From: a virus
Taxonomy: Duplodnaviria; Heunggongvirae; Uroviricota; Caudoviricetes
Virus record (IMG/VR): IMGVR_UViG_2529292997_000008
Coordinates: 1-38,707 of that record
DNA: 38,707 nucleotides
Direction: 5' to 3' (one strand)
Shown piece after piece: positions 1 to 36,034 of the stretch. The stretch's first letter is position 1; each line of letters starts with the position of its first letter. The translations under genes and the position numbers were made by a program. The notes beneath the pieces were generated by a model. It ran no database searches. It saw nothing but the letters and a program-made list of their open reading frames with translations, and had not been told where the DNA came from.

Positions 1-129
<129 letters not shown>

Positions 130-330
130 TCAGGGACTTGTTCGCACCTTCCTTAAGTGTTTAATTGTCTCAGGCAAGCATCCTGCTTCGTCATATTCCG
201 CTGATAATCCTGTTTTCTGGCGTAACTGCTGCATTGTGTCGATGCCATCCAGTTCAAGGATGTTGATAATTTTTGTTTCAAGTTCAATGCTCATTGTTTT
301 TAGCCTCAATTTAAGCGCGAAAACAGCCAC
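130..330 (-). CDS. hypothetical small protein downstream of helicase gene
   Basis: 66-codon ORF in track, same orientation as replication operon; no recognisable motifs; alternative internal start at 294. Confidence 0.3.
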   Translation of the reverse strand: MAVFALKLRLKTMSIELETKIINILELDGIDTMQQLRQKTGLSAEYDEAGCLPETIKHLRKVRTSP

Positions 331-373
331 CAGAAAGCGGTAAACTTTCCGGTAAGCCGTTTGCTCAAGTTAA

Positions 374-1795
374 TTAAAAAGATGCTTTATTCTGGTTGTT
401 TCGTGGCGAGAATCGGCTTACCGCCGGACGTTGTTGCATTGACTGGATGCAAGCTGACGCCGCGCGGGCCTGGTCACACGGTAATATGTTGCCGTTGTCG
501 TCAAAACGCTGGTAAACAGTCCCGGTTTTTCCGTGACGGTTTTTTGAAACGATAATCTCCATGTATTCGCGTGCAACAGATTGTTCGTTGTAGTAGCCGT
601 CGCGGTATACCATGATGATCCGGTCTGCGTCCTGTTCAAGATTGCCGGAATCGCGCAGATCAGAATTGTTCGGTCGCTTGTTCGGTCGTTCCTCGACGCG
701 GCGGGATAATTGCGCCAGCGCCGCCACTGGTACGCGCAATTCTTTCGCCATCATTTTCAATGACCACGACAATTGCCCTACAGCGAGATCGTGACGTTCT
801 GCCTTAGCCAGCTTCATTAACCCGATGTAGTCAATCATTACCATACCCAGGTTGGGATAATCCTGCTTCATTCGTTCAGTTGTGGCGCGTATTTCCTCGA
901 CAGTTAACTGTGATGCATCAACAATCCACACATCGAGATCAGCAAGTGCGCTCATTCCCTGGGCAACGTGCGCCCATCCTTCGTCATCCAGTTTTACCGG
1001 ATTACGTAAGCAATCCGTTGACAAATTCCCTGCGCCAGCGATAGCGCGTTCAGTCATCTGATCGAGCGACATTTCAAGCGTGAACAGCAAAACGCCGACC
1101 CGCTGACCTTCGCCTCCAGGGTATGGGCGTTCAGCCGCCGCGCGGGCAATTGCCAACGCCAACGCCGATTTACCAGACCCTGGGCGTCCGGCGATAAGCA
1201 CCAGATCAGTAGCGTTAATGCCGCCTAACATTTCGTCGAGTGGGTCAATCCCTGTTTTGATGTTGTCAGAGTTCACGCCACACTCCATGCGTTTACTTAA
1301 CACTTCCGTGTATTCCTGGACCGCATCGCGCAACAGCACCGGGATAATTTGATCTTTTGTTACCTTTAATTTTGAATACCGGGAATCAAAATCTTTCATC
1401 GTCTCCCTGACGACTTCAAGCGTCCCTGTTTCCAGCTTGTAGCGAATGTCTTCCATTAGTTCCAGCATTTGCCGACGCTGGTGTTCTTCCTGTAGTAGTT
1501 GCGCATATCCTTTCAGGTTGGCAGCAGAAGGGCACGATCGTGCCGTTTGCATTAGCGGTACAAAGTTTTCATTGCCAATCTCATCGCCAACCAATAACGC
1601 GTCGATAAGATTTCTGTTTCTGGCTTGCGCCCGGATAACTTCAAACGCACGTTTATAAAGCGGGATCGTGAACACTTCAGGATCAAGTGTGGCGAGAACA
1701 TCTTGCGCGTTAGGAGTAAGGCCACCTAACAGTAGCCCGCCGATAACTGACGCTTCACGTTCCTGCCGTAGTGAGTTTATTTGCTCAGTTACCAT
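374..1795 (-). CDS. replicative DNA helicase, DnaB family
   Basis: 473 aa; Walker A GRPGSGKSALAL, DnaB-like N-terminal and RecA-like C-terminal layout; GGAGG RBS upstream of ATG at 1795. Confidence 0.9.
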   Translation of the reverse strand: MVTEQINSLRQEREASVIGGLLLGGLTPNAQDVLATLDPEVFTIPLYKRAFEVIRAQARNRNLIDALLVGDEIGNENFVPLMQTARSCPSAANLKGYAQLLQEEHQRRQMLELMEDIRYKLETGTLEVVRETMKDFDSRYSKLKVTKDQIIPVLLRDAVQEYTEVLSKRMECGVNSDNIKTGIDPLDEMLGGINATDLVLIAGRPGSGKSALALAIARAAAERPYPGGEGQRVGVLLFTLEMSLDQMTERAIAGAGNLSTDCLRNPVKLDDEGWAHVAQGMSALADLDVWIVDASQLTVEEIRATTERMKQDYPNLGMVMIDYIGLMKLAKAERHDLAVGQLSWSLKMMAKELRVPVAALAQLSRRVEERPNKRPNNSDLRDSGNLEQDADRIIMVYRDGYYNEQSVAREYMEIIVSKNRHGKTGTVYQRFDDNGNILPCDQARAASACIQSMQQRPAVSRFSPRNNQNKASF

Positions 1796-1813
1796 TATGT
1801 TATTGCCTCCGGT

Positions 1814-2932
1814 TTACAAAATGGAATATTCAGGGTAATAAACAAAGCGCCCAATTTCCCCATGATCCGGGCTGTAAATAATCACCGCTGCCAGACGCCG
1901 CGACCGCCAGCCGCCATTAGTTGAATATGCGTCTTTGCCAGCTAATGTGCCGTGGTGCTCAACTATTCCAAGTGATGTTTCAACAACTGATTGATGGTGC
2001 AGATGTCCAGTGTGAGCGTAAACAGCCACAGACCTTCCGAAATCCTCCCGCCAGTCAGCTACGCAAGCAGACAATAAATTTTCCGGCTTTTTGATAGTGT
2101 GCCCGTGGTGGTAAGCAAGGAATGTTTTGCCATACTGTGTGTGGTGGACAATGGCAGGTGACACGTCAACAGTCACGCGCGGCTCATCTTCGTAAAAAGC
2201 CGCAAGCGCAGCACGTAGCCAGATCATACCTGATTGGTCGTGATTACCGGATAATACCTGGATCTCGACATCCTTATGATTTAGTAACATCTTCCCGACC
2301 GCACGCCGGACCGACCGGATCGCCACATAAACCAGTTTTGCGTAGCGTGAATCACAATCTAAAACGTGATTACTTGATGGCGTCACTGGTAACAGGCCGT
2401 CAGTGTGAAGCACATCACCGCCGAGAAGTAAAACAGCTTTTTCAGACATCGGAGCAGCGCCAACAGCGTAGTCAAAGAAGTCATTCAACACGCGCTCAGC
2501 GATCCCAGTATCGTAGCTCTCACCGCATTCAGCTTTATGAGCAAGCGCCCCGATATGCAGATCAAACACCGGATAAAGTGCCAGGCTTTTTTGAAAATCA
2601 ATTTCAGGCACTGGCACAGCCTCCGCGCGTGGTATTTCATCAGTGAAAGCGTCGCGGGCCGCTTCCATTAGCTGTTCCATTTCTTCGCGGTCACGGGCTG
2701 TTTTAATCCAGCGCATGATAACATTGCCGTTCTTATCGACTAGCAACGACTCGCCATTGACGCCAAAACCAGGAGCGCGGCGTGTTGATAATAAACCACG
2801 TTTCGCCAGTTTTGCGCCCAGGCGCTCGACATTGCGTTTTGACATGCCATATTTTTCAGCAATCTGCTTGTACGTTAAACCGTTGTTATATTCAGCGATC
2901 AATTGCTCATCGCTGATTTTTCTTTGCGACAT
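1814..2932 (-). CDS. HTH domain protein fused to calcineurin-like metallophosphoesterase
   Basis: 372 aa; N-terminal HTH (LTYKQIAEKYGMSKRNVERL); metallophosphatase motifs DLH, GGD, GNHD, HHGH, GHLHH in canonical order; GAGGA RBS. Confidence 0.6.
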   Translation of the reverse strand: MSQRKISDEQLIAEYNNGLTYKQIAEKYGMSKRNVERLGAKLAKRGLLSTRRAPGFGVNGESLLVDKNGNVIMRWIKTARDREEMEQLMEAARDAFTDEIPRAEAVPVPEIDFQKSLALYPVFDLHIGALAHKAECGESYDTGIAERVLNDFFDYAVGAAPMSEKAVLLLGGDVLHTDGLLPVTPSSNHVLDCDSRYAKLVYVAIRSVRRAVGKMLLNHKDVEIQVLSGNHDQSGMIWLRAALAAFYEDEPRVTVDVSPAIVHHTQYGKTFLAYHHGHTIKKPENLLSACVADWREDFGRSVAVYAHTGHLHHQSVVETSLGIVEHHGTLAGKDAYSTNGGWRSRRLAAVIIYSPDHGEIGRFVYYPEYSIL

Positions 2933-2966
2933 AATGTTAATTCCTCAGGTTTACATTTTGTATACA

Positions 2967-4022
2967 TCAGGATATAGCACAACGAAAAAACTTGCACCCC
3001 AAATAATCCTCAATGCGTTTTTGTCTTATCGCATCGCTTTTTGCTTGCCGTTTGTGATGTGATTCATCAATTTCTACAGCAATATTATTCACAAGATCGT
3101 AGCCATCAATAAAATACTTGTTGCCAGCAACATTAACAGGATATTGCCTTATTAATTTAACTCCTTTTAGTTTTTCGTACATAGTTAATCCAGCATGTTC
3201 ATAACGCTTCCTAATCATATTTTTACAATTATAACTCATTTCTGATAATTTCTCGTCACATTCCCTTTTTATTTCCTCAATTACATTCTTGTCGCTTTTT
3301 AATTCAATAAAGTTTTCTATGTCGTTATAATTACCGCATTCAAAATTATTACTAAGACCTTTATTTTGACCCCATGTATGATACTTTTCCGCTATCTTAT
3401 CGCTAATATATCTTTCATATCCATAATTTGTTTTAACTGTAAAATATTCAATATTTAAATCAATGGTAAACTCATCATTATTAAGATGTTCATTTAAAAA
3501 CGTATCTGGATCTGCAATATCGCTTGAATGAAACAACCTTACCCATAGTTTTTCTATTGATACTCCGCGAGTAACGAACAACCATTTTTTATACTTTTCA
3601 GCATCTTCCTTTGACACATACACAGAGCATCGCCCGGGAGTATCACTAGTTTCAACATAGTTGTTACACCATAAAACATAATTATAAGCATAAGGACTAT
3701 CTTTTCTGGTATTATTTGAATATTTATTAAACACATCTTGTAAATCAACTAATCCACAAGATTCAATAACTGGCTTAACCCAATTTTCATTATATTCATA
3801 ATGTCTATATTTACCAGGTGTAACGAATCTAATAAACGTTATAGGTGTGATATACACATCATCACCATCAATAATAAAATCCTTGTATTCCTCAAATCCG
3901 TAAAGATCAGAGTATTTAACAAATGATTTAAGCCTATCGATTTCAAGTTCAGAAACAAGATTATTAACAGATAGTAATTGCGTGTCCTTACAATTTAGTT
4001 TCACATGATAAGTGGCAATCAT
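2967..4022 (-). CDS. low-GC accessory protein with C-terminal DUF559/Vsr-like (PD-(D/E)xK) endonuclease-type motif
   Basis: Track ORF 2967..4103 trimmed to ATG at 4022 preceded by AAGAGG; 351 aa; markedly AT-rich versus flanks; C-terminus FIDGYDLVNNIAVEIDESHH..DAIRQKRIEDYLGCKFFR fits pattern aIE.DG..HH...D..R...L...G..v.R. Confidence 0.6.
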   Translation of the reverse strand: MIATYHVKLNCKDTQLLSVNNLVSELEIDRLKSFVKYSDLYGFEEYKDFIIDGDDVYITPITFIRFVTPGKYRHYEYNENWVKPVIESCGLVDLQDVFNKYSNNTRKDSPYAYNYVLWCNNYVETSDTPGRCSVYVSKEDAEKYKKWLFVTRGVSIEKLWVRLFHSSDIADPDTFLNEHLNNDEFTIDLNIEYFTVKTNYGYERYISDKIAEKYHTWGQNKGLSNNFECGNYNDIENFIELKSDKNVIEEIKRECDEKLSEMSYNCKNMIRKRYEHAGLTMYEKLKGVKLIRQYPVNVAGNKYFIDGYDLVNNIAVEIDESHHKRQAKSDAIRQKRIEDYLGCKFFRCAIS

Positions 4023-4175
4023 ATGTACCTCTTTTCTTAATTTTATATATAACGCCTCAGACGTGCTACAACGCAAAAATCCCACCGCGTAACCCGTTTG
4101 CACAGGTTGCAGTGTCTTATTGCGTCAGAGGCGCTCTCAGGTGGCTAATTTTTGATTTACAGGCTGGTATGAAGG

Positions 4176-4277
4176 TTATGGATTGATAAGAAGGAACAAA
4201 CCGCCGAACAAAGCGACGTTAACAGCGATTGCAGCAGCGATGGCAAAGGCCAGGGCGAAAACGTGTTTACCGTCCAT
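4176..4277 (-). CDS. small hydrophobic peptide (33 aa, single predicted TM helix)
   Basis: MDGKHVFALAFAIAAAIAVNVALFGGLFLLINP; ATG with GAGAGGA RBS; not in track (<60 aa). Confidence 0.3.
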   Translation of the reverse strand: MDGKHVFALAFAIAAAIAVNVALFGGLFLLINP

Positions 4278-4410
4278 TTTAAAATCCTCTCTAAAACGCT
4301 CTATAACGAGCTAAATAGCTAAAGATATGCAATCGTAGCACCATGCGTGTTTTAGCTCGCTGGTGAGGTTGTTTTGTGGGTAATTTTGGATTTTTGCGAA
4401 TCGTGGTTGG

Positions 4411-5463
4411 TCAAAGAGCGCCTGCGCGTGTGTCGCGTAGCGTTTTTGGTTTAAGCAGGAAATCAAGTGTCGCTGTGAAGCCATTGCCGAAGTAAAAATC
4501 TGAAGCCGTGTTTTTGAATGTTTCGAAGTAGGCGACAAAGCCGTTAATGCTTTTGTCTTTCAGGTAGTCAGTGAACGCATAGATCTTGCGTTCAAGATCC
4601 CGATCCAGTTCGACAGGTGGTAACAGGCCGTCAAACGTGCTGTTAAATGCTTCCACCACGTCGGCAGCGTTTGCAGTGGCTGACAGTTTGCGCCATTGTT
4701 CAGCATCAGTCAGATACCCATCAAATTTAGTTACCCGGCAAATATTGATAGGCTTAGGTGTTCCACCACGGCTACGCCATTGCGTTAAAGCCCACTCAAT
4801 CACTAATGTGATCTCATCCTCCGTATACGCTTTACGTGTTTTTGTTTCTGTCAGTAGTTCGATGAATGGCTTCGCATCACGACATTTGCATCCTGCCTTG
4901 TCGTTGTAGAAGGCCAGGCAACGCAACGCCGCTTCGTTTACGCCATCATGATTGACCATTTTTTGTTCATTTTCGACAATACACGAAGTGTATATATCTT
5001 TTTCTCTTTCTTCTTCTACTTCTAATTCTAATTCATGACCCTTTCCTGACCCGGTCATGACCCTATCATGACCTTTTTGTGTTGGATTGATTAACTTTTC
5101 TAATTTTAATTGCTCCTTAGCTGTGTTTATGGCGGCCCTGTACGCGCTTTTAGAAGTCATTGATTGGTCAAGCCTTTTCAATAACTTTAAACAAGTTATG
5201 TGGCCTTGAGAACATTCAAACAAACCAATTTCGATGAAGTATTTCATCATTTCTTCTATACGTTTTTCAGTCGATCCGACGTTTCGCGCAATGATTCTCG
5301 CGTCATGTCGTAGGTCAAAAGTCAGATTGTGCTGATCTACGTCATAAGTTATTAGTTCGAGGCAATACCAATAAAGCCCGTACCCTTCCAGGCCATAATC
5401 TAACAAAACGTTTTGAAGTTTTTCATCGCGGTTCGCATCGCTGTCATGCTTAAACCACTTCAT
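4411..5463 (-). CDS. replication initiation protein, phage replisome-organizer N-terminal type
   Basis: 350 aa; N-terminus MKWFKHDSDANRDEKLQNVLLDYGLEGYGLYWYCLELI resembles replisome organizer N-domain; acidic linker; GGAGGG RBS; start overlaps upstream stop. Confidence 0.65.
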   Translation of the reverse strand: MKWFKHDSDANRDEKLQNVLLDYGLEGYGLYWYCLELITYDVDQHNLTFDLRHDARIIARNVGSTEKRIEEMMKYFIEIGLFECSQGHITCLKLLKRLDQSMTSKSAYRAAINTAKEQLKLEKLINPTQKGHDRVMTGSGKGHELELEVEEEREKDIYTSCIVENEQKMVNHDGVNEAALRCLAFYNDKAGCKCRDAKPFIELLTETKTRKAYTEDEITLVIEWALTQWRSRGGTPKPINICRVTKFDGYLTDAEQWRKLSATANAADVVEAFNSTFDGLLPPVELDRDLERKIYAFTDYLKDKSINGFVAYFETFKNTASDFYFGNGFTATLDFLLKPKTLRDTRAGAL

Positions 5464-5466
5464 AGA

Positions 5467-5724
5467 TCATCCCTCCGGCAACATCACTACATAGACATCA
5501 CTGAATGCATCAAGACGACAAACAAATCCTTTATCCATTAACGCGGCGAAGGCATCATGTACCGTATGAACAGGAAGTTCACACATTGCGGCTACTTCTT
5601 TGCGTGATGCATCATGTACCCGTCCTTTGTTATCTGCCTTTTCAGCCAGAGCCATTAAGACAAGTTTTTGAATCGGGCTATTAAGTTTTACGTTCCATGC
5701 TTTACTAATCATGTTTATACTCAT
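5467..5724 (-). CDS. small winged-helix DNA-binding protein at Cro/CII position
   Basis: 85 aa from ATG at 5724 with AGGAGA RBS (the 111-aa track version needs a TTG start); first gene of leftward operon divergent from cI. Confidence 0.5.
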   Translation of the reverse strand: MSINMISKAWNVKLNSPIQKLVLMALAEKADNKGRVHDASRKEVAAMCELPVHTVHDAFAALMDKGFVCRLDAFSDVYVVMLPEG

Positions 5725-5833
5725 CGCATTTTCTCCTATGGTTAGAGTGAACGCGCGGGCGGGCATCCCATTAGCATTAGATAGCAGTGACTGACCGCTC
5801 AACAGATCCCGCCGTTGCGTGATATTTGTTTTT

Positions 5834-5867
5834 CGCTTCGCAGCGACACCGGATTTTTAAAGAGCAT
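5834..5867 (-). promoter_or_regulatory. candidate nut-like site (boxA TGCTCTTTAAAAA plus boxB-like hairpin CGCU-GCGA-AGCG) in leftward leader
   Basis: Read on minus strand; boxA 11-12/13 to rrn/lambda boxA consensus, followed 8 nt later by 4-bp stem with GNRA-type loop. Confidence 0.35.
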
Positions 5868-6029
5868 AAGGTAAGTGCCTTTTTGTGCCTTCCGTTATCT
5901 TTTTCCTTGCGTCTTTGCAAGTATGGCCTTACCTTGTCTGCAAGTTTACAAAATGGAATTTTAAGATCAAGGCTTAAAATACACGTTTTGTGACTTGCAT
6001 CAAACTTTTTGAGGTTATAGGGTAGCGAC

Positions 6030-6677
6030 ATGAAAACAAAATGGTATGACTTAGCAAAGCAGCTCATGCGGGCGCAGGGCATGAGCCAGGATTCGCTCGC
6101 GGATCGTATGGGGATAACTAAAGGCGGCCTGTCACACTGGCTGAACGGTCGCCGAGAGCCAAATCTTGAAGATATTGCGCGGATTATGCGCGAGCTTGGT
6201 CGTCGGCAGTTTACTGTTACACATGATGGCATGGTCATTGATGATTCTGTTTCTAATACACTTCAGGCCGTGCCGCCGCGTGATTTAGGTAGTTACCCGG
6301 TTATTGACTGGAAGGACACAGTAAACAATATGGATGACGCAAGGCGTTCAGCATTACGACACGTTACGACTAGCGTTATTTGTTCAGATGACAGTTACTG
6401 GCTGGTTGCCAAAGGTGAATCAATGAACGCGCCGCAGGGGTTGAGCATCCCGGCGGGGACGATGATACTTGTGGACCCGCACGCGCCAGCTATTGACGGC
6501 AAACTGGTTATAGCCCAGCTTGAGGAAGGGCAGATACCGACGTTTAAACAGTTGATTATTGATGGAGGTCAAAGGCTTTTACGTTCGCTCAATCCGCTGT
6601 ATCCGCCAATCCCTATGAATCCAGAATCAAAAATTATAGGCGTGGTGGTTGATGCGAAGATCGTAAACCTGCCATAA
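6030..6677 (+). CDS. CI-type prophage repressor (HTH-XRE N-domain, LexA-like S24 peptidase C-domain)
   Basis: 215 aa; HTH QDSLADRMGITKGGLSHWLNGRR; C-domain with GESM serine motif and downstream Lys-containing segment; GAGG RBS. Confidence 0.85.
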   Translation: MKTKWYDLAKQLMRAQGMSQDSLADRMGITKGGLSHWLNGRREPNLEDIARIMRELGRRQFTVTHDGMVIDDSVSNTLQAVPPRDLGSYPVIDWKDTVNNMDDARRSALRHVTTSVICSDDSYWLVAKGESMNAPQGLSIPAGTMILVDPHAPAIDGKLVIAQLEEGQIPTFKQLIIDGGQRLLRSLNPLYPPIPMNPESKIIGVVVDAKIVNLP

Positions 6678-6684
6678 ACATTAG

Positions 6685-6708
6685 CCGCCGAATGGCGGCT
6701 TTTCTTTG
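6685..6708 (+). terminator. rho-independent terminator after repressor gene
   Basis: GCCGCC-GAAT-GGCGGC hairpin followed by TTTTCTTTG. Confidence 0.7.
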
Positions 6709-6800
6709 CCTGGGAAACACCAAAACGTAAACAGAAAACGTTATTTATTATTTAAATATCAATGGCATATAAAATATTTTAAAAAAGTATACAAAATGGA

Positions 6801-6829
6801 TTGACTCGATGTTTTACGGGGCGTATATT
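6801..6829 (+). promoter_or_regulatory. sigma70-like promoter (PL-analogue) driving rightward early operon
   Basis: TTGACT-17 nt-TATATT; TACAAAATGGA motif immediately upstream (6790-6800). Confidence 0.5.
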
Positions 6830-7082
6830 GCGAGTCAAAGGAAGGGCGCAGGTAACAAAAGCAACTTCCTGGCACTTTAAAAATCAGGCTTAACACCTTG
6901 TCAACCGTGGAGTAACTCCCCGATGGGGGACCGAAAGCGGCACTGATAACAAGGCGCATGGGGTGTTTAAAGCGTTACATCCCCCACGAAACCGCACGCA
7001 AGGCGACGAGTCAGCTTGCTTGGAGTGAGCAAGGTCACGCCGGGAACGGCGATGATTGCGGGATTAGTTGAAAGATGTTAAG

Positions 7083-7120
7083 CCGCTCATTAACAATCTG
7101 GTCAGCCGCTGGAAGTGCGG
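7083..7120 (+). promoter_or_regulatory. candidate nutL-like site (boxA CGCTCATTAACAA, boxB-like hairpin GCCGC-UGGAAGU-GCGGC)
   Basis: boxA 11/13 to consensus, 11-nt spacer, 5-bp stem hairpin; about 60 nt upstream of N-like ORF. Confidence 0.45.
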
Positions 7121-7177
7121 CAATTAACGAAGATGATTTTTTATTAAGTATCATCAAGGATATACGGAGATCAGATT

Positions 7178-7468
7178 ATGAGCGTTACAATTATATATGG
7201 TAAATGTGATAGCAAAATGAATGCCAGGGAACGCAGAAGGATAAAAAGAGAAAACGAAAGAAAATCATCACCTGCAATCAATAAAACAGACAATGTGGAT
7301 AAAGCTATTCGATTTGCAAACGAGGAAAGATGCAAACCAAATAGCATTAAAGAACGTCGCAAAGGATCAGTAAAATGGTATACGGAAAATGAAAGCGGCA
7401 GCTACTACCACGCAACGCAACCACGCCATTTAGGGGAAAAACCCCTGGATAAAGTCCGCTACCATTAA
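7178..7468 (+). CDS. N-like transcription antiterminator candidate (arginine-rich motif protein)
   Basis: 96 aa, basic; N-proximal ARM NARERRRIKRENERK; first gene after PL-like promoter and nut-like site. Confidence 0.5.
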   Translation: MSVTIIYGKCDSKMNARERRRIKRENERKSSPAINKTDNVDKAIRFANEERCKPNSIKERRKGSVKWYTENESGSYYHATQPRHLGEKPLDKVRYH

Positions 7469-7498
7469 TACAAAATGTAAACATCCGGAGATGACATT

Positions 7499-7621
7499 AT
7501 GGTTATTCAGGCGCTTCAATTCAAACTGGCAGTAGCGGAAATGCTTCACGATGCCGAAATGTGGAGCGCCGCGAATAAAGCCTTATACATAGTGTTAACA
7601 GCACGGGAGATTAAATGGTGA
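7499..7621 (+). CDS. small ORF (40 aa)
   Basis: ATG with GGAG RBS, preceded by conserved 15-mer ATACAAAATGTAAAC cassette; overlaps erf start. Confidence 0.35.
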   Translation: MVIQALQFKLAVAEMLHDAEMWSAANKALYIVLTAREIKW

Positions 7622-8259
7622 AAACAGAGTTACATAAAAAGCTATGGACGATTCAGCAAACGCTGAACGCGCCGAAAAATCAGCGTAATAATTTTGGTGG
7701 ATATAATTACAGGTCGGCGGAGGATATTTTAGAGGCGGTTAAACCACTGCTTCAAAATATCACGCTGACTGTTAGTGATGAAATTGTCCTGATCGGCAAT
7801 CGCTATTATGTGAAAGCAACGGCGACGCTAAGCGACGGTGAAGACGTAATAGCGGTAACTGCTTATGCCAGGGAGGAAGAAAACAAGAAGGGTATGGACG
7901 CCAGCCAGCTAACAGGAGCAACATCAAGTTACGCGCGTAAATATGCTTTGAACGGTTTATTCTGTATAGATGATGCTCGCGATCCTGATACTGATGCTTA
8001 CGCGAAGCAGACAGGCCAGCAGCCGCGACAACAGAAAAACCCACCAAAACAACAACCGCAGCAGAAGAAAGCGCCGCCAAATCCTGATGAAGTATTAGCA
8101 CGTTTCTGTGATGCAGCAGCGAAAGCGCAGGACGCTAACAAGCTGCGTGAAATATTTGGCAAATGCTGGAAATTACTACCGGAAGGATCGGAACATCGAA
8201 TCAAGGCAAAAGATGTTTATGACATCCGGGTCGCAGAGCTTAACGGGGAGATGGGTTAA
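7615..8259 (+). CDS. erf: ERF-family single-strand annealing recombinase
   Basis: 214 aa; N-terminal ERF-like core, Q/P-rich linker, C-terminal domain; GGGAGA RBS. Confidence 0.8.
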   Translation: MVKTELHKKLWTIQQTLNAPKNQRNNFGGYNYRSAEDILEAVKPLLQNITLTVSDEIVLIGNRYYVKATATLSDGEDVIAVTAYAREEENKKGMDASQLTGATSSYARKYALNGLFCIDDARDPDTDAYAKQTGQQPRQQKNPPKQQPQQKKAPPNPDEVLARFCDAAAKAQDANKLREIFGKCWKLLPEGSEHRIKAKDVYDIRVAELNGEMG

Positions 8260-8678
8260 TGAGTTTGAATTCAATTACGCTGGGCGGGAATATCGGAAAC
8301 GACATGGAAGTTCGCTACACGCAAAACGGTAAAGCGATTGGTAGTTTTCCGTTAGCTGTAACGAATGGCTACGGTGATAACAAGCGGACAATGTGGATCA
8401 CTTGCCTGGTATTTGGTGAGCGTGCGGAAAAATTAGCGCCACATATCCGCAAGGGTGGAAAAATAGTGGTAAGCGGTCGCCTGGATGTTCGGCAATATGA
8501 CCGGAACGACGGCACGAAGGGGACTGCGGTAGAAGTGGCGGTTAATGAATTTGAATTCATGAATGTTAACCAACAAGGCCAGCAGCAAGGACAGCAGCAG
8601 AAAGCGCCGCCGCAGCAGCAGAATAATAACGGGAATAATCCGCCTCCGATGGACTTCGACGACGATATTCCTTTTTAG
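8259..8678 (+). CDS. ssb: single-stranded DNA-binding protein
   Basis: 139 aa; OB-fold core, Gln/Gly/Pro-rich linker, acidic C-terminal tail DFDDDIPF. Confidence 0.9.
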   Translation: MSLNSITLGGNIGNDMEVRYTQNGKAIGSFPLAVTNGYGDNKRTMWITCLVFGERAEKLAPHIRKGGKIVVSGRLDVRQYDRNDGTKGTAVEVAVNEFEFMNVNQQGQQQGQQQKAPPQQQNNNGNNPPPMDFDDDIPF

Positions 8679-8694
8679 AATCAATGTGTTAGCG

Positions 8695-8973
8695 ATGAGT
8701 GATTATCTAAAACCGCCGCCGCAACCACGAACAAAAGAGCAAGTATTAAAAGAAGCCCGCGATCAAATCGATCGCGGGCTTTTTTTATGCGGCACGGCAG
8801 CGGAACGGATGGCAAAAAGATTTAGTGACCTGTACGCAAAACAAATATGGTTCGACAACTGGCAGGCAAGTTTTTATCCGCTGCAAAGAAAACCGGATAT
8901 GCATTGGCCTGAATATGTCGATCCGCGTATGCGCAAATATCGCGGGCGTATGGGCCAGGTTATTAACGATTAA
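8695..8973 (+). CDS. hypothetical protein
   Basis: 92 aa from first ATG after ssb stop; co-directional compact operon. Confidence 0.5.
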   Translation: MSDYLKPPPQPRTKEQVLKEARDQIDRGLFLCGTAAERMAKRFSDLYAKQIWFDNWQASFYPLQRKPDMHWPEYVDPRMRKYRGRMGQVIND

Positions 8974-8987
8974 TGAGGTATTAAATC

Positions 8988-9212
8988 ATGATCGAAGATA
9001 AAGAAGTTGACAATGAAATTCCTGACGGCGCTGATGAACTTATCACTTTCGGTGGCGGGCTGTACGAGTTTGAAACGTCGGCTGGGTGGACGGATAAGTG
9101 GCCTTTCCCAACGCGCCAGGAATTAAGCGTTCGTAAATCATTTGGCGAAGATGCCGAACGGCTGGCTAATAACAAGTGGCTTAATAAGTTTATTGCGGAG
9201 GGTGGCAAATGA
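8988..9212 (+). CDS. hypothetical protein
   Basis: 74 aa; GAGG RBS. Confidence 0.5.
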   Translation: MIEDKEVDNEIPDGADELITFGGGLYEFETSAGWTDKWPFPTRQELSVRKSFGEDAERLANNKWLNKFIAEGGK

Positions 9213-9322
9213 ACCTTGCAAAAATTGCCGCATTGCTTGCGGCTTTGTCTATCGCTGTGCTGTATCTCAGCGCATCTCTTTATATCACGGCAGCGATCAT
9301 TAAACTCATTACTAACATGTGA
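9209..9322 (+). CDS. small hydrophobic peptide (37 aa)
   Basis: MNLAKIAALLAALSIAVLYLSASLYITAAIIKLITNM; GGAGGGTGG RBS; ATGA overlap with upstream stop. Confidence 0.4.
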   Translation: MNLAKIAALLAALSIAVLYLSASLYITAAIIKLITNM

Positions 9323-9330
9323 GGCCAATT

Positions 9331-9450
9331 ATGAAAGTCGGTAAGGATATTGTGACTGTCGCGTTTTGCATTATTTGCTTCCTGTTTGTGTTTGTTTCTT
9401 GTGGCGCATTTGCTGCGCTGGTTAGCTTTATTTTCAGAGGGTTGCTGTGA
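9331..9450 (+). CDS. small hydrophobic peptide (39 aa)
   Basis: MKVGKDIVTVAFCIICFLFVFVSCGAFAALVSFIFRGLL; GAGG RBS; stop overlaps next start. Confidence 0.4.
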   Translation: MKVGKDIVTVAFCIICFLFVFVSCGAFAALVSFIFRGLL

Positions 9451-9722
9451 TGAAAACATGGGATGCAAAGTCTGGTGATCTTGTCGTGTTGCCTGAATAT
9501 CGTGATGACCCTGGCCTGGTTGTACTGAATAAGATGTATAACGATCTCGAGCGCCCGCTAGTGGTTAAATACCTGGACGGAACAATCATCGAACCGCGCT
9601 ACTTTGATGATATTGAACTGAAGGCCCGCAATGTTCGCGTTAAGCCGTTCCGGGCTTATGCTGAAAACCACTGGCGGAAATTGTTCGCCGGACTGAATGG
9701 GATGTTCGGCGTATGGCTATAA
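9447..9722 (+). CDS. hypothetical protein
   Basis: 91 aa track ORF, overlapping start/stop with neighbours. Confidence 0.5.
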   Translation: MMKTWDAKSGDLVVLPEYRDDPGLVVLNKMYNDLERPLVVKYLDGTIIEPRYFDDIELKARNVRVKPFRAYAENHWRKLFAGLNGMFGVWL

Positions 9723-9904
9723 AATTGGTGAAAGTTAAAGATTTAAAAGGCGGCGAAAAGATCCGAACGTGGTATGGGTATAAATTTATCATAGCTGCCT
9801 TTTCTTTTGGGCCTGGTGGTCAGGTAACATTATTTGACGAGGAAGATGATGAGGTGGGTCAATGGCATCTTGAACAATATGTTGAGGTGTTAAATGAAAA
9901 TTAA
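9713..9904 (+). CDS. hypothetical protein
   Basis: 63 aa track ORF. Confidence 0.45.
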   Translation: MAIKLVKVKDLKGGEKIRTWYGYKFIIAAFSFGPGGQVTLFDEEDDEVGQWHLEQYVEVLNEN

Positions 9905-10226
9905 ATTCCATAAAGCATATGATAGCGAAACAAACAAGCTATCACTATTTATCGAATTCGAACGCCGGATCGTGGTTGTGCCCTGGGCGCGGCGCTTCAA
10001 TGACGCTGGCGGACGTAGACAATTCGCGGTCGATATGCTGTTACGCGGCTGCGGCCTTATGCGTCCGCTATCTGATTTAAAACGAATGATGCCGGGATCG
10101 TTCGGTCAGATTGATGAAATAGAAATAAGCCCGGAAGAACTGAAACGGGAGCGTGATTTATTCCTTTCAAGCGAAGGAAACCCGTTTAATTCAGAAACTG
10201 AAATGAAATGGCATCACCCACTATAA
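9894..10226 (+). CDS. hypothetical protein
   Basis: 110 aa track ORF. Confidence 0.5.
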   Translation: MKIKFHKAYDSETNKLSLFIEFERRIVVVPWARRFNDAGGRRQFAVDMLLRGCGLMRPLSDLKRMMPGSFGQIDEIEISPEELKRERDLFLSSEGNPFNSETEMKWHHPL

Positions 10227-10239
10227 AAGGATAAATATC

Positions 10240-10860
10240 ATGAACGACATCAAAACAGCTTACTCTCTCGGTAATGAAGGTATGTTGATCACTCGCTATA
10301 CAGATGATGCAAACTTTCACGAAGTGGAAATTAAAGATTATCACGAAGTATTGAAAGATATGGAAGCTGGCGCGTATGACGCTGATTTGAATCTGGCGCT
10401 ACAGGTTGTTGATATTGTGATGGGTGCGTCAATCCGCGATTACGTGTCTTTAAGTATGGAAGAAAAAACATCGGTAGCGCGTTATGTATTCTCTCTTACT
10501 TTTGTGAAGCGCATGGAGGAAGAATTCGGACGCGTACCAGTGCCGGAAGAGGTTGATCCGCTCGCGTTCGGAAGTGCTGTCATTTTCCCGTTGAACAAGG
10601 AACAGCTTGGTAGTGTTTCACTGCATTCTATGCGCGTCCTGATGAAAAATATCTTTGAGGTTAAGATGTTGCAGAAATGCATTGAGGAAGGCCACAAAGA
10701 GGAAGAAGTAAAAGCGCTCATGCCATTGTTTTACGGTGAAATGGTTGGCAATGATATGCGTGCAAATGATTTCGGCGTACAGGCGGCTATCGCTGTGCTT
10801 AATTACGCACGGAAAAACGCACAGCCGACGCCTGAACAGGGAAAACGTGTACTGCATTAA
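10240..10860 (+). CDS. hypothetical protein (206 aa)
   Basis: Long ORF with RBS; no motif recognised. Confidence 0.6.
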   Translation: MNDIKTAYSLGNEGMLITRYTDDANFHEVEIKDYHEVLKDMEAGAYDADLNLALQVVDIVMGASIRDYVSLSMEEKTSVARYVFSLTFVKRMEEEFGRVPVPEEVDPLAFGSAVIFPLNKEQLGSVSLHSMRVLMKNIFEVKMLQKCIEEGHKEEEVKALMPLFYGEMVGNDMRANDFGVQAAIAVLNYARKNAQPTPEQGKRVLH

Positions 10861-10959
10861 CCGAGTAATTCCGATCACATAAATATACATTTTGTATTGT
10901 GATTGTATATCCGTTTTGTAAGCCGAAATCAAAAGGTTTACGGTGCGGAGGAAGCAAAA

Positions 10960-11178
10960 ATGGAACGCGAATTGATGCTTTATTGCGTAGAAGGTGGCGT
11001 AGGTCACGATGCCTACGTCGCCGGGAAAGACTATCCAGCCGATGAAGTGCTTTCTAATATGCACTTCAGAGAAAATGAAAGCCAGGTGTCTGTGTGGAAA
11101 CGGTGTATTGATGGTATTGAGGTTGTAAGTATCGAACGGTATTTAGGCACGTTTGATTACGGTGTTATTGAGGCTTAA
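10960..11178 (+). CDS. hypothetical protein
   Basis: Track ORF 10903 trimmed to ATG with GGAGGAAG RBS; preceded by motif-bearing intergenic region. Confidence 0.45.
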   Translation: MERELMLYCVEGGVGHDAYVAGKDYPADEVLSNMHFRENESQVSVWKRCIDGIEVVSIERYLGTFDYGVIEA

Positions 11179-11180
11179 TT

Positions 11181-11273
11181 ATGGACGATACATTGTTTTA
11201 TATGTGCTGTTTCTGGGGTTTTATTGCCTTATACCTGTTTATCAGGTGGTTTATTGAATACCATATGAGGTAA
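11181..11273 (+). CDS. small hydrophobic peptide (30 aa)
   Basis: MDDTLFYMCCFWGFIALYLFIRWFIEYHMR; GAGG RBS. Confidence 0.3.
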   Translation: MDDTLFYMCCFWGFIALYLFIRWFIEYHMR

Positions 11274-11276
11274 TGT

Positions 11277-11471
11277 ATGGAACAAGAAACTGATTATCGA
11301 ATACCTGATAGCCTAAAATTAGTTGGCATTGGTTTCGGGTGTAGATTTGTATCTGACGCAAAAGGAGCGATTTATTTAATACGTCTTATTGATGGCGTTC
11401 AACATATAAGGAGATTAGGAATTTACATCAAAGCATTCAGAAGAGGTTATTTAAAAACTCATGAAATTTAA
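11277..11471 (+). CDS. hypothetical protein
   Basis: 64 aa track ORF. Confidence 0.45.
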   Translation: MEQETDYRIPDSLKLVGIGFGCRFVSDAKGAIYLIRLIDGVQHIRRLGIYIKAFRRGYLKTHEI

Positions 11472-11664
11472 ACATTACATGGAATGGAAAATTCCAGAAG
11501 CAGCAACAAAGGCAGCGCCAGGAAATTTTTCTGGCGTTTATTTTTATATGGATGGCAAATGGTATTTCGGCAGCAGGCCGGATCACTACTATCAAGAAAT
11601 ATGCAAGCCTCACGTATGGGATATTAAAGAGCGCGTGAAAGGCGGGGTAATTGAGGACGTTTAA
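11461..11664 (+). CDS. hypothetical protein
   Basis: 67 aa track ORF. Confidence 0.45.
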   Translation: MKFKHYMEWKIPEAATKAAPGNFSGVYFYMDGKWYFGSRPDHYYQEICKPHVWDIKERVKGGVIEDV

Positions 11665-11665
11665 A

Positions 11666-11902
11666 ATGCTTAAGAGCTTTTTTAACTGGTTGGGGGCGTG
11701 GCTTTTGGCTACGCTTTTTGTTTTCCTGGCGGCCCTGACTGTTATCGGTGTTATTATGCTGGGGGCTATGTTTATTACGTGGTCGCTTCCTGAATTTAAC
11801 GACATTGGGAATATTCTTTTTGCAGCCCGCGCTTTATTGGCTGTTAGCGCATTCATTGGTTTTTGCTGGACTGCCGCGCCGGATTGGACTGACACATGGT
11901 GA
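11666..11902 (+). CDS. membrane protein (2 predicted TM helices)
   Basis: Track ORF trimmed to ATG after GAGGA RBS; hydrophobic segments. Confidence 0.5.
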   Translation: MLKSFFNWLGAWLLATLFVFLAALTVIGVIMLGAMFITWSLPEFNDIGNILFAARALLAVSAFIGFCWTAAPDWTDTW

Positions 11903-11906
11903 TCCT

Positions 11907-12140
11907 ATGGCCTTATTCAATATGTCAGAGCCGCAATTTAACGCCGTAAAGACTGCCGCCCGCGCCGCGCTTTCGGCCTGCAAAGCGGAGGTAGAGAAGA
12001 ACGGCTACAGCGATAAAGCCACGCGGCTGATACTCGACAAGCATTATCGCAAGGTCGCCCCGCTAATCAGCATTGAGCGTTTTGTGTGGTTGGTGGGGTA
12101 TCTGAATAACCGCTGGGGGACGGAGCAGGATTATTTCTAA
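11907..12140 (+). CDS. hypothetical protein
   Basis: Track ORF 11748 trimmed to in-frame ATG after previous stop. Confidence 0.45.
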   Translation: MALFNMSEPQFNAVKTAARAALSACKAEVEKNGYSDKATRLILDKHYRKVAPLISIERFVWLVGYLNNRWGTEQDYF

Positions 12141-26810: not shown

Positions 26811-28196
26811 ATGCCATCCAATTTAGAATTGGCGGTTAATGCTGCCTTGTCACAACGCAAGGCGGCCTTTGCCCGCTATGCAGCCGCTAACCCATTCTCA
26901 ATGGGTATTGATGCAAAACGTGATGCTGCGTGGAGTGAATACGGATTCAAAGAAGAAATCACCTATGACGATTTATACAAACTGTATCGTCGCGGTGGTA
27001 TCGCTCACGGTGCTATTGAGAAGATCATCACTACGTGCTGGCGCACCAGGCCAACGCTGATCGAAGGTACGGAAGACGAGAAAGCAGAAAAGGAAACGCC
27101 GTGGGAAAGAGAAATCAAAAAACAATTTGATAATCGTTTCTGGCGCGTCATAGCTGAATGTGATCGCCGCCGCCTCATTGGTCGTTATGCTGGCCTGTTG
27201 ATTCATGTCAGAGATAACCAGCCGTGGGATCAGCCAGTAACAAAAGGCGTAGGCATTGCCAAATTTACTCCAGTATGGGCTGGTGCTCTGACGCCGAAGG
27301 ACTTCGAAGAAAACCCGGATAAAGAAAACTATGGCCTGCCTACATGGTGGGAATACAAGGAGCGCATCAATAGTAAGACCATAGCAAGAAAGATACATCC
27401 AGACCGGATATTCATCTTCGGTGACTATTCTGATGATGCTATCGCTTTCCTTGAGCCGTCCTATAACGCTTTTGTATCGCTGGAGAAAGTGGAAGGAGGT
27501 AGCGGTGAATCCTTTCTAAAAAACGCCGCACGTCAACTGGCTATCTCGTTCGATAAAGAGATTGATTTCCGTTCCCTGGCTGCAACATACGGTTGCGACG
27601 TTACAGAGCTACGCGAAAAATTCAATGAAGCGGCAGAGGATATAAACAAAGGGAATGATGTGATGATGGCATTACAGGGAGCCACCGTTAGCCCGCTGGT
27701 CACTGCCGTAGCAGATCCGTCCGCAACCTATGACGTCAACCTGCAAACCGCCGCCGCTGGTATCGACATTCCAACGCGTATCCTGGTTGGGAATCAGCAG
27801 GGCGAACGCGCATCAACTGAAGACCTCCGCTACTTCAATAATCGCTGTATGACCCGCCGTGAGGAAATAGGAGGCGAGCTTGAGGAACTATTCCGCAAGA
27901 TGGCAGATCTCCGCCTTATCAGTATGCCAGTCGATGTATCAGTGTTATGGGATGACCTTAACGCCATGACAAAAGCCGAACTACTGGAAGCGGCACACAA
28001 GATGGCGCAAATCAATCAGGCATGTCTCGCTACTGGTGAGGAAATATTTAGCGGCGATGAGATCCGCGAAGCTGCCGGATATGAAGGGCCAACGCAGGAA
28101 GTAGAAGTGGAAGACGAGGACGATAAAGATGAAGATGAAGATGAAAGTAAAGAGAATAATCAAAAAGATTCCGCCGTCCGCGATAATGCCATCTAA
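26811..28196 (+). CDS. portal protein (positional call)
   Basis: Track ORF trimmed to ATG after CAGGAGT; 461 aa directly after terL; acidic C-terminal tail. Confidence 0.6.
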   Translation: MPSNLELAVNAALSQRKAAFARYAAANPFSMGIDAKRDAAWSEYGFKEEITYDDLYKLYRRGGIAHGAIEKIITTCWRTRPTLIEGTEDEKAEKETPWEREIKKQFDNRFWRVIAECDRRRLIGRYAGLLIHVRDNQPWDQPVTKGVGIAKFTPVWAGALTPKDFEENPDKENYGLPTWWEYKERINSKTIARKIHPDRIFIFGDYSDDAIAFLEPSYNAFVSLEKVEGGSGESFLKNAARQLAISFDKEIDFRSLAATYGCDVTELREKFNEAAEDINKGNDVMMALQGATVSPLVTAVADPSATYDVNLQTAAAGIDIPTRILVGNQQGERASTEDLRYFNNRCMTRREEIGGELEELFRKMADLRLISMPVDVSVLWDDLNAMTKAELLEAAHKMAQINQACLATGEEIFSGDEIREAAGYEGPTQEVEVEDEDDKDEDEDESKENNQKDSAVRDNAI

Positions 28197-34298: not shown

Positions 34299-34997
34299 AT
34301 GATCCATGTTCGTACAGGACAATTTGCTGCCGTGGTGAACGGTAAGCGCTATGAGTTTAATCCTTGCTTTGCTGCGATGGCTAAAATCGGCAACGATAGT
34401 GAGCTTGTCGAATATTTCGCACTTATCCACGGCGGCAAATATCCATCACGATTGCCAGCAGATCCAGACCTACGCAATCGCATTCTGGCGCGGTGTTATG
34501 GTGAAATAGTTCAGACATCAATGCACATCCTGAAATGTTGCTCAGACGACGAAATAGGCCCGTTATTGGGCGAATGCTGGTTTACTCCTTCGGGTAAGTT
34601 AAAGTTAAAGCCCGGATTAATGCCGATCGAGGATATCATCACGCTTGCGCAGCACTGCATGTACCACGGTCTTATTGGTGATGGCCCGGAAGAAGAGTCC
34701 GGGGAAATTCCGGAAGGGGAATATAAGCCGACTTTTAACGTCCTTGAATTCGTCTATTCTGCCGTTGCTCACCTGGGCTTGTCAGAATCGGAAGCATGGA
34801 ATATGACAATGACCGGATATAGGGCCGCTGTACGCGCTAAAACGCCGCCAGACGAAAGAAACGAGAAAAGCAAGCCAAACATTCACATAAATAAACGTGC
34901 TTATGACGAGCAAATGGAGGCCGCTAAAAAGGCACTAGAAAGAATGAAAAATCGTGAGCAAGAAAAGCCCGGTAGATCCGGGCGTTTTGCTAATTGA
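34299..34997 (+). CDS. tail assembly chaperone-position protein
   Basis: Trimmed to ATG after AAGGTGA (track start is GTG); last + gene before tape measure. Confidence 0.4.
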   Translation: MIHVRTGQFAAVVNGKRYEFNPCFAAMAKIGNDSELVEYFALIHGGKYPSRLPADPDLRNRILARCYGEIVQTSMHILKCCSDDEIGPLLGECWFTPSGKLKLKPGLMPIEDIITLAQHCMYHGLIGDGPEEESGEIPEGEYKPTFNVLEFVYSAVAHLGLSESEAWNMTMTGYRAAVRAKTPPDERNEKSKPNIHINKRAYDEQMEAAKKALERMKNREQEKPGRSGRFAN

Positions 34998-35364
34998 AAT
35001 CTTTAATTGCTGTACCTGGTGAACTGTGTGTGATTGTATTGTATACAGACTTTGCCTTACTGCGATCTTTCCATTCTTTTAGGATGCAGTTATCAAACTT
35101 TGCGATAACCCTTGAAGGGGATAATTCTTCAACATCCATGTAAGTAAATCCTATCGTGCTGGTTACTGAATACCATACGTGATAACTATAATTACCGTCA
35201 TGCTCGATTCTTTGTGGTTCCCCCATTATTTTATTCACTTGCTCACAAGTCATTCCAACTTGCAAATTTTTATCAGCTAACTTAACGAAATCAGTTGATC
35301 TTGCGCACCCTGTAAGAGCTAAAGCCATAACACCAATGAGAACCGCTTTGATTATTTTTTTCAT
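34990..35364 (-). CDS. moron lipoprotein with BamE/SmpA-OmlA-like motif
   Basis: 124 aa; signal peptide plus lipobox LTGC; GMTCEQVNKIMGEP resembles BamE motif; opposite strand inside tail module. Confidence 0.7.
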   Translation of the reverse strand: MKKIIKAVLIGVMALALTGCARSTDFVKLADKNLQVGMTCEQVNKIMGEPQRIEHDGNYSYHVWYSVTSTIGFTYMDVEELSPSRVIAKFDNCILKEWKDRSKAKSVYNTITHSSPGTAIKDFN

Positions 35365-35374
35365 GATTTACCCC

Positions 35375-36034
35375 TTAATTCCAGTTGCAAGCGTTTTTCA
35401 CTTTGTCGATGTGGTTATAAAGACCATCAATGTTAAACACTGCTTTCTCAATGTCGCCAGCTTCCGGCACTACTTCAATGATGAATTGTTTTTCGTTAAC
35501 CAGTTTTTTAATCATTGGGATGGCTTTTTTGCCGTCCCATAATCCAAGAGCTTTATAATTAGTTGACCGCCACCACTCAGTAGCTACAGCTTTGTGAACG
35601 CCGATCCGGTAGTTAATATAAGTAGTGTCCCCGGCGTCAGTTACATGGTGTGACCATGCTACGAACATTTTTGTTTTATTACCCTGGCAAGCGATTGTTA
35701 ATACCGGTTTATTCTTATCCTGTGCCTTCAGTGTCGGGAAAGCATCAAGACTTCCGCTGAATTGTTCTGCTTTCACAAAAAGGAATACGTTTTTTGCGTC
35801 CTGCATATCATCTTTTCTTTCAACTACAAGCCACTGTTTACCAGCATTTTCTTTTTCTAACTGTGCATCGTATGCGGCTTGTTTTGCTTGTTGTTCTGCA
35901 AGCCATTTAGCATTTTTCTCTGCTAATGCTTGTTGCTCTTGATTGGTCACTATAGGCGCTTTTTCATTATCCTCATTGCAACCAACCAGACCCAATACCG
36001 CCGCAATCATTGCCACTTTTGCTAACCGTTTCAT
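35375..36034 (-). CDS. moron lipoprotein (219 aa)
   Basis: Signal peptide plus lipobox LVGC; Gln/Ala/Lys-rich linker; GGTGGG RBS; own promoter at 36082-36121. Confidence 0.7.
   Translation of the reverse strand: MKRLAKVAMIAAVLGLVGCNEDNEKAPIVTNQEQQALAEKNAKWLAEQQAKQAAYDAQLEKENAGKQWLVVERKDDMQDAKNVFLFVKAEQFSGSLDAFPTLKAQDKNKPVLTIACQGNKTKMFVAWSHHVTDAGDTTYINYRIGVHKAVATEWWRSTNYKALGLWDGKKAIPMIKKLVNEKQFIIEVVPEAGDIEKAVFNIDGLYNHIDKVKNACNWN

Follow-up and report, generated by a model that had tools for sequence, protein, structure and literature searches.

A repeated 15-mer in an mEp021-like temperate phage is part of a dispersed family of operator-like dyads

Auxiliary or distant operators that act through DNA looping include those of the lambda OL-OR octamer, FL and FR of phage 186, OD of phage TP901-1 and O2 and O3 of lac, and cluster K mycobacteriophages carry short conserved start-associated sequences which lie just upstream of several start codons, include the ribosome-binding site (RBS), and are found always in the sense orientation and at gene starts only. 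In cluster A mycobacteriophages the repressor (L5 gp71 and its relatives) has many sites genome-wide, the stoperators, which are located mostly in short gaps of the lytic operons and for which a role in prophage silencing has been proposed; these sites are asymmetric, 13 bp long, placed in one orientation relative to transcription and recognised by a monomeric, unrelated repressor (PMC9283540, PMC6550527). For phage epsilon34, the repressor of which has a DNA-binding domain closest to that of phage L, the genome paper gives the putative operator WTACRAWWTGTAT (PMC2629481). Here we analyse a 15-mer, ATACAAAATGTAAAC, that occurs twice in the 38,707-nucleotide (nt) stretch of the caudoviricete record IMGVR_UViG_2529292997_000008 (positions 1 to 38,707, hereafter the window), and the family of operator-like dyads to which it belongs. 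The window shares about 90% identity with temperate E. coli phages of the mEp021/mEp515 group, which has been described as the single-immunity "mEpimmI" group (PMC11893012); mEpimmI phages have been reported to be as common in human faecal isolates as lambdoid phages.

The exact 15-mer was confirmed at 2949-2963 (minus strand) and 7468-7482 (plus strand), and the two 34-nt stretches running through the ATG of the next gene align without gaps at 28 of 34 positions, sharing the end ACATTATG. By itself such a repeat is within chance: dinucleotide-type shuffles of the window hold on average 3.0 repeated 15-mers, at least one is found in 90% of them, and the window contains about 10 distinct repeat loci of at least 15 nt. 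The motif family around the 15-mer, on the other hand, is beyond chance. Its 9-mer core TACAAAATG is present in 10 copies against 0.79 expected, and the degenerate form TACAAAAYGK in 11 copies against 0.61 expected, neither count being reached by any shuffle. Alignment of the window copies yields a 17-bp imperfect dyad, GTWTACA-AAA-TGKAWAC, and in all about 13 related 17-bp dyads conform to the consensus GTWTACA-N3-TGKAWAC, with ATACA and TGTAT as arms. Nine of the 11 strongest sites are wholly non-coding, while another touches no more than a stop codon and the last overlaps terminal codons (sites B and 1812, respectively, below), in a window with a coding fraction of roughly 84% as judged from rough gene calls. 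The dyads are oriented in both ways relative to transcription, and several possess a tandem partner at a distance of 24-25 bp (6787/6812, 10883/10907 and 36081/36106).

Three members of the family, including both copies of the 15-mer, occupy stop-to-start gaps of about 31 nt within the two early operons:

2949-2965, minus strand: site A, GTATACA-AAA-TGTAAAC, containing the 15-mer; it begins 1 nt past the stop of the DUF559 open reading frame (ORF) and ends 16 nt before the gp11 ATG
7466-7482, plus strand: site B, TAATACA-AAA-TGTAAAC, containing the 15-mer; it takes in the TAA stop of gp17, and 16 nt separate its end from the gp18 ATG
1812-1828, plus strand: site 1 (site 1812), GTTTACAAAATGGAATA, reading TATTCCATTTTGTAAAC on the transcribed (minus) strand; it overlaps the last codons and the stop of gp11, 16 nt before the helicase ATG

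Here gp11 denotes the 372-codon ORF at 1814..2932 (minus strand), which has a weak N-terminal helix-turn-helix (HTH) match, and the DUF559 ORF is an AT-rich reading frame of 378 codons at 2967..4103 (minus strand) with a DUF559 endonuclease-like C-terminus; gp17 (96 codons, 7178..7468) and gp18 (40 codons, 7499..7621) flank site B. According to the mEp021/mEp515 annotation, Gp17 is the N-like antiterminator, the cI-like repressor is encoded at 6030..6677, Erf at 7615..8259 and the replicative helicase at 374..1795. The layout is lambda-like: a leftward operon with the replication genes diverges from cI, and a rightward operon, which begins past the cI terminator, holds nutR1, gp17 and the recombination genes. 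Site A is located 3.0 kb and site B 0.8 kb from cI.

The same dyad recurs at the predicted early promoters flanking cI; the best word common to the two cI-flanking regulatory regions is the motif itself, AAGTWTACAAAATGGA. The corresponding sites are as follows:

6787-6803, plus strand: upstream operator-like site, GTATACAAAATGGATTG; it overlaps the -35 element TTGACT (6801-6806) of the rightward early promoter and is present in all relatives
6812-6828, no strand assigned: core operator-like dyad, TTTTACG-GGG-CGTATAT, between the -35 and the -10 element TATATT (6824-6829)
5944-5960, plus strand: operator-like site placed where cI and the leftward early operon diverge; it covers the -10 element of the putative leftward promoter
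5979-5995, no strand assigned: weak second dyad, ATACACGTTTTGTGACT, which reads AATACATTTTGTGAC in the relatives

The two rightward sites are 25 bp apart, centre to centre, and they lie on the best sigma-70-like promoter of the region (TTGACT-17-TATATT, 6801-6829). The leftward promoter (TTGATC at 5970-5965, a spacer of 16 nt and TAAACT at 5948-5943) is proposed by analogy with Klebsiella phage KPP5665-2; together with the nutR2 and late-region-insert promoters described below, it falls under the threshold of the promoter scan; all three are assigned by analogy only. An 8-bp inverted repeat, TTGACTCG ... CGAGTCAA, at 6801-6838 brackets the rightward early promoter from its -35 element to about +1, and could represent a site for a second regulator.

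Comparison with related genomes, namely 42 IMG/VR loci found through gp17 and two GenBank phages, indicates that it is the dyad which is maintained. Every relative in this set encodes the same cI at 90% identity or more and carries 4-12 core copies per ~10-20 kb. At site A, 45 relatives have ATACA-N3-TGTAAAC directly past each stop, the arms being kept and the spacer reading AAA, TTC, ATT, TTT, ATA or TAT, even though the gene ends found upstream belong to at least seven unrelated types; in the window this slot spans 2967-4410 and is occupied by the DUF559 ORF. Such a combination of fixed arms and variable spacer is the signature of a protein-binding dyad rather than of a duplicated primary sequence. 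Site B is invariant save in the two most divergent loci, where the spacer is changed and the arms are kept (ATACATAACGTAAAC, ATACATATCGTAAAC). Site 1 is retained in 39 relatives, even when an HNH gene is inserted upstream; this HNH endonuclease gene, between helicase and gp11, is present or absent depending on the relative. Two further dyad-like sequences, at 7583-7599 (gp18) and 1863-1879 (gp11), lie inside coding sequence and were dropped because their synonymous positions drift in the relatives.

The motif also goes with the immunity module rather than with the downstream gene. About 40 loci of T1-like lytic phages, found through gp11 (58-73% identity), have neither a cI nor a gp17 homologue, and they contain 0-2 core copies with no dyad before gp11. 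We used these loci as a presence/absence control, which is distinct from a test of operator/repressor covariation. A gp11 search of genome contigs returned two loci only and was uninformative. A cassette that travels with its downstream gene is thus contradicted by the gp11 homologues of the T1-like phages, which lack the motif.

The repressor encoded by the window provides a plausible partner for the dyads. It contains HTH_3 and Peptidase_S24 domains (Pfam) and matches the lambda repressor 3bdn over its full length (E = 1.4e-20). It shares 44-51% identity with its counterparts in Salmonella phage L (c2) and Klebsiella phage KPP5665-2 and ~45% with the one in Erwinia phage Midgardsormr38, rising to 51-59% over the N-terminal 72 residues; these three phages are otherwise unrelated to the phage of the window. 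The recognition-helix region is similar as well (ITKGGLSHWLNGRR here versus KTQGAIGHWLNGRR, ITQGGLGHWLNARR and ITKGAVSHWLNARR in the homologues). In all three phages the same dyad is found in the classic arrays, that is, in the repressor-cro gaps and OL regions. Phage L has AATACAAAATGTACT (twice), AGTACGAAATGTATT and ATTACGAGATGTATT, which read as CAATACAAAATGTACTT (twice), TAGTACGAAATGTATTA and TATTACGAGATGTATTG; KPP5665-2 has AATACAAAATGGAAG, AATACATAACGTACT and AATACGGAATGTAAT (as TAATACAAAATGGAAGT, TAATACATAACGTACTA and AAATACGGAATGTAATA) and two more across the repressor gene; Midgardsormr38 has ATATACAAAATGTGT, GTATACATTTCGTAT and GAATACAGATTGTAT (as ATATACAAAATGTGTCT, GTATACATTTCGTATCT and GAATACAGATTGTATGA). 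Adjacent sites in the OL/OR arrays of phage L and KPP5665-2 are 25 bp apart, and elsewhere in the whole genomes of these two phages the dyad occurs at chance level. The putative epsilon34 operator WTACRAWWTGTAT, allowing at most one mismatch, matches sites A, B, C (10883) and 6787, with nine strand matches in total against 1.52 expected; sites A and B agree with it at 12 of 13 positions and site C at 13 of 13. A position weight matrix (PWM) built solely from the operators of phage L, KPP5665-2 and Midgardsormr38, hereafter the heterologous PWM, ranks 10883 first and 7466 second in the window, places 6787 in the top 5 and has all other family members among its 20 best hits.

The remaining members of the family are located further along the genome, in the gap between the gp25-like and gp26-like genes, around a terminator and in the late region:

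10883-10899, minus strand: site C, CAATACAAAATGTATAT, which forms a perfect ATACA-AAA-TGTAT dyad and is flanked by the rightward gp25-like and gp26-like genes
10907-10923, minus strand: site C2, GCTTACAAAACGGATAT, 24 bp from site C
14420-14436, plus strand: site E1, GTTTACAAAATGGCGTC, shortly ahead of the terminator hairpin (14431-14466)
14484-14500, minus strand: site E2, GTATACAAAACGGATAC, between the terminator and the nutR2 boxA (14515-)
36081-36097, plus strand: inverted-pair arm, TTATACAAAATGGAGTC, in the divergent gap between the minus-strand insert 34990..36034 and the tape-measure gene
36106-36122, minus strand: inverted-pair partner, TTATACAAAATGGCTTT, 25 bp centre to centre from 36081-36097

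Site E2 would overlap a promoter proposed by analogy (TTGTTC at 14474-14479, 16 nt, TATACT at 14496-14501). The pair at 36081/36106 forms a 42-bp palindrome. The insert at 34990..36034 consists of two minus-strand genes (phrog_1848 and phrog_18614) that lie among the tail genes, directly ahead of the tape-measure gene. Since its upstream gap holds this palindrome of two operator-like sites, the insert may be subject to the repressor. The promoter proposed for the insert (36080-36108, minus strand) has a -10 element, TATAAG, that lacks the conserved final T.

Taken together, the sites are present, strongly over-represented, located between genes, conserved as dyads and matched by the operators of homologous repressors, and in sequence they belong to the phage L/epsilon34-type class of CI operators. 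The 15-mer is thus probably the core of a 17-bp dyad operator recognised by the lambda-type CI of this phage, with sites A and B being two of about 13 such sites. That CI binds them, and what effect it has there, we infer from sequence. The observation made in the initial annotation is therefore confirmed and its interpretation is partly supported: the notion of a reused regulatory module is upheld, and both copies do lie at gene junctions that are mosaic boundaries among the relatives. The picture of a two-copy cassette tied to two genes has to be abandoned, since sites A and B belong to a set of about 13 dyads, several of which are found away from gene starts, either on promoters or beside a terminator, and the orientation is mixed; the match to operators of homologous repressors in unrelated phages likewise runs counter to it.

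Several points weigh against this assignment. At sites A and B, the promoter scan and inspection in the sense direction detected no acceptable -35/-10 pair, and because there is no recognisable promoter the classic operator role is inapplicable to these two sites; the sites at 5944, 6787 and 6812 are placed as expected for an early promoter, and sites A and B are not. Each of the cI-proximal promoters has one strong and one weak site instead of the usual triplet. The A-tract spacer is invariant among the strong copies of the window, which is more than a simple operator model needs. The heterologous PWM is weak and its enrichment modest, with 8 hits against 4.3 at a score of at least 10 and 5 against 1.0 at a score of at least 12. 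Conservation of the sites is only mildly informative, since the relatives are close (~90% DNA identity). A hetero-immune member of the same phage family was sought and not found: all gp17-linked loci carry the same cI, and the distant gp11 loci are T1-like. Finally, the operators of the mEpimmI repressor were not mapped in the study describing the group (PMC11893012).

If the dyads are indeed CI operators, CI dimers would occupy all copies in the lysogen. At 5944, at 6787/6812 and probably at 14484, CI would repress initiation of transcription. At sites A, B and 1812 it would be the occupant of an auxiliary operator, possibly aided by a weak dyad that follows each of them at +24 and covers the start codon of the next gene; all three of these weak dyads are tentative:

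2925-2941, minus strand: weak dyad, ATTAACATTATGTCGCA, 24 bp downstream of site A, over the gp11 start codon, in the top 0.8% of the window
7490-7506, plus strand: weak dyad, GATGACATTATGGTTAT, 24 bp downstream of site B, over the gp18 start codon, in the top 0.5% of the window
1788-1804, minus strand: weak dyad, AATAACATAATGGTAAC, 24 bp downstream of site 1, over the helicase start codon, in the top 1.6% of the window

The ATG within each weak dyad is the start codon itself, and 24 bp is the spacing of cooperative operator pairs. In all three cases +24 has the best heterologous-PWM score among offsets 18-31, a post hoc finding on three copies that are not independent. Bound CI might act as a roadblock, in a stoperator-like manner, halting RNA polymerase that arrives by leakage or read-through, whether from upstream genes that have been swapped in or from cI transcripts. 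Alternatively, the sites might be partners in repressor-mediated DNA loops, which would raise the local repressor concentration and tighten repression of the early promoters; the two options are not separable in silico. A more ambitious version, which we consider doubtful, would have the dimeric lambda-type CI run a genome-wide, stoperator-like network of silencing and insulation in a common group of gut coliphages. In this network helicase, gp11 and gp18 would each have a strong and a weak operator straddling their Shine-Dalgarno (SD) sequence and start codon and blocking read-through from the exchangeable genes upstream, and the same operators would double as the crossover points that keep those slots exchangeable.

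Explanations that dispense with CI binding have to be weighed against this assignment, and the foremost of them is recombination. The dyad could be a linker, i.e. microhomology at gene boundaries used for module swaps by the phage Erf and single-strand-binding protein (SSB) or by the host, and hence a footprint rather than a protein site. Site A sits where the relatives hold at least seven unrelated upstream genes, whose types assort semi-independently from the downstream RBS variants, implying crossovers in or beside the dyad; the motif is retained at site 1 when the HNH gene is gained or lost beside it, and among 2,485 pairs of start regions, those of helicase, gp11 and gp18 resemble one another most closely. 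Nevertheless, a linker leaves unexplained the copies at promoters, those flanking the terminator and the inverted pairs, as well as the dyad symmetry with its free spacer and the occurrence of an identical dyad in the operators that homologous repressors have in unrelated phages, and we regard it as unlikely to be the whole account. It is not a true alternative, because operators could also double as crossover points, and a linker role may well coexist with binding. The idea that the dyads serve a protein other than CI, be it a factor of the host, gp11 through its N-terminal HTH or an early protein resembling Cro, is quite improbable. In its favour, gp11, which comes immediately after site A, has a weak HTH match at its start, and CI and Cro use the same operators in lambda-like systems. 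The motif is A/T-rich and presumably bears a superficial likeness to some host-factor sites; to our knowledge, its geometry fits none of the OmpR, PhoB, Fis, IHF and TyrR boxes. On the other hand, T1-like gp11 homologues occur without the motif, which tracks cI homologues across four unrelated phages. As to gp14, the first leftward gene and an HTH protein, its identity ranges from 28% to 100% among relatives that all keep the motif, so that it is not a conserved partner of the dyad.

The remaining explanations operate on RNA or invoke no function at all. Conserved dyads might form an RNA-level cassette, such as a translational operator, an enhancer or a processing site in the mRNA, at a fixed 16 nt before certain early start codons. 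When the 19-nt regions upstream of 71 called genes were compared in all 2,485 pairs, the most similar were helicase/gp11 (15/19), gp17/gp18 (14/19) and gp11/gp18 (13/19), and helicase, gp11 and gp18 share TGTAAAC, then 16 nt containing GGAG, then ATG. To this extent the reading of the 15-mer as an initiation cassette holds good, these start regions being unusually alike; its conserved part, however, is a DNA dyad with a free spacer and not an SD module. The weak second dyad over the start codon may itself explain the likeness, and the fixed spacing is in part a matter of geometry, because a 17-bp site plus an SD sequence just fills a gap of ~31 nt. Most members of the family lie away from gene starts and in both orientations, and conserved arms around a free spacer in the relatives are what a DNA dyad would leave. 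The RNA folds predicted for sites A, B, 1812 and C proved weak, inconsistent between sites and no better than shuffles (z -1.3, -0.7 and +0.8), and an Rfam search of positions 1-16000 at the gathering threshold gave 0 matches; neither RNA structure nor an Rfam family thus backs the role of an RNA-level initiation element that had been suggested, and we consider this explanation highly improbable. Chance repetition without function, for which the 3.0 exact 15-mer repeats expected per shuffle might be cited, is effectively refuted by a family that is more than tenfold enriched, located between genes and positionally conserved in 45 relatives.

The dyads also have to be distinguished from the nut sites of this phage group. 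In mEp021, the published Gp17-dependent nut sites, composed of a boxA and a boxB hairpin with an A-rich loop, are three in number, two of them preceding gp15 and gp17, respectively, and the third following gp32 (PMC11893012), and we considered and rejected sites A and B as nut sites: the published positions differ, and both lack a boxA and a stable hairpin. An exact 20-mer inverted repeat, ATGCTCTTTAAAAATCCGGT in the transcribed direction, at 5848-5867 (minus strand) and 14515-14534 (plus strand), corresponds to the boxA-like portions of nutL and nutR2 as published. Further on, at ~14566-14576, lies a boxB-like sequence, CCTGAAAAAGG, which overlaps the SD sequence of the NinG-like gene, the true start of which is probably the ATG at 14578. 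The 3' end of gp17 contains another boxB-like hairpin, GGGGAAAAACCCC (7433-7445), which precedes site B by 20 nt, is retained by most relatives and lies outside the three published nut sites.

Three further repeats were noticed in the window. A perfect palindrome, ATACACGAAGTGTAT, with operator-like arms and a 5-nt spacer is found at 4979-4993, inside the replication-initiator-like gene 4411..5463, and may be linked to the origin. A strict operator-like dyad, TTATACAAACTGTATCG, occurs at 26973-26989 within the late coding region 26811..28196, beyond the reach of the related loci. Lastly, an exact 21-bp tandem duplication (GAAGAATTACAGACCAACCA...) is present at 30117-30158 within a late structural gene.

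For the mEpimmI group, all of one immunity type, 13 predicted operator sites are now listed. Were the sites to prove bound, they would explain how the prophage withstands a steady exchange of foreign genes within its early operons; were they unbound, the finding would shrink to an ordinary conserved junction sequence.

Among described systems, the operators of phage L, epsilon34, KPP5665-2 and Midgardsormr38 have in common with the sites of the window the ATACA-N3-TGTAT dyad, a length of 17 bp, neighbour spacing of 24-25 bp and a homologous repressor, with one site abutting the -35 element and another lying over the spacer and the -10 element. The phage L-type operators differ in being confined to OL/OR arrays by the repressor gene, whereas most copies in the window are elsewhere, including promoter-less junctions and positions up to ~30 kb from cI, and its cI-proximal promoters each have two sites, not three. 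Looping operators likewise provide extra copies away from the regulated promoter, and the C-terminal domain of the repressor is homologous to the cooperativity domain of lambda CI; in the window, however, sites are far more numerous and several are at gene starts, and looping is here only proposed. As with the start-associated sequences of cluster K, a short conserved sequence stands right before several start codons, but the motif of the window excludes the SD sequence and is also found at promoters and terminators.

The T1-like phages, which share gp11, offer another parallel. A 22-bp intergenic repeat, VWATAGCAYKWWTTGYTAAAAV, has been reported for T1 and Stevie (PMC4319613). In the T1-like gp11-sharing loci (L093-L133) we observed ~8-13 copies per 20 kb of a 21-22 bp repeat, AAATAGCAC-N5-GYTAAAA, placed between genes from the stop codon to the next SD sequence and in a single orientation (for example at 8405, 9425, 15205, 17256, 17762, 20047 and 20510 of L094). 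Like the dyads, this is an element of ~20 bp that fills the stop-to-SD gaps of many early genes; it differs in having another sequence and strictly one orientation, and in occurring in lytic phages without CI.

Stoperators share with the window the dispersal of sites over short intergenic gaps (~13 sites in 38.7 kb here). The sites of the window differ in being dyads, in their mixed orientation and in being fewer, as well as in having a lambda-type repressor with an S24 domain as their putative partner; a block to elongation is, in this phage, only proposed. Most likely, then, the sites are lambda-type operators that have become dispersed to gene junctions, an arrangement not previously described in phages of this group. 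If CI does bind them, the arrangement for silencing would be nearer to that of the mycobacteriophage stoperators than to that of lambda, yet built with a lambda-type protein.

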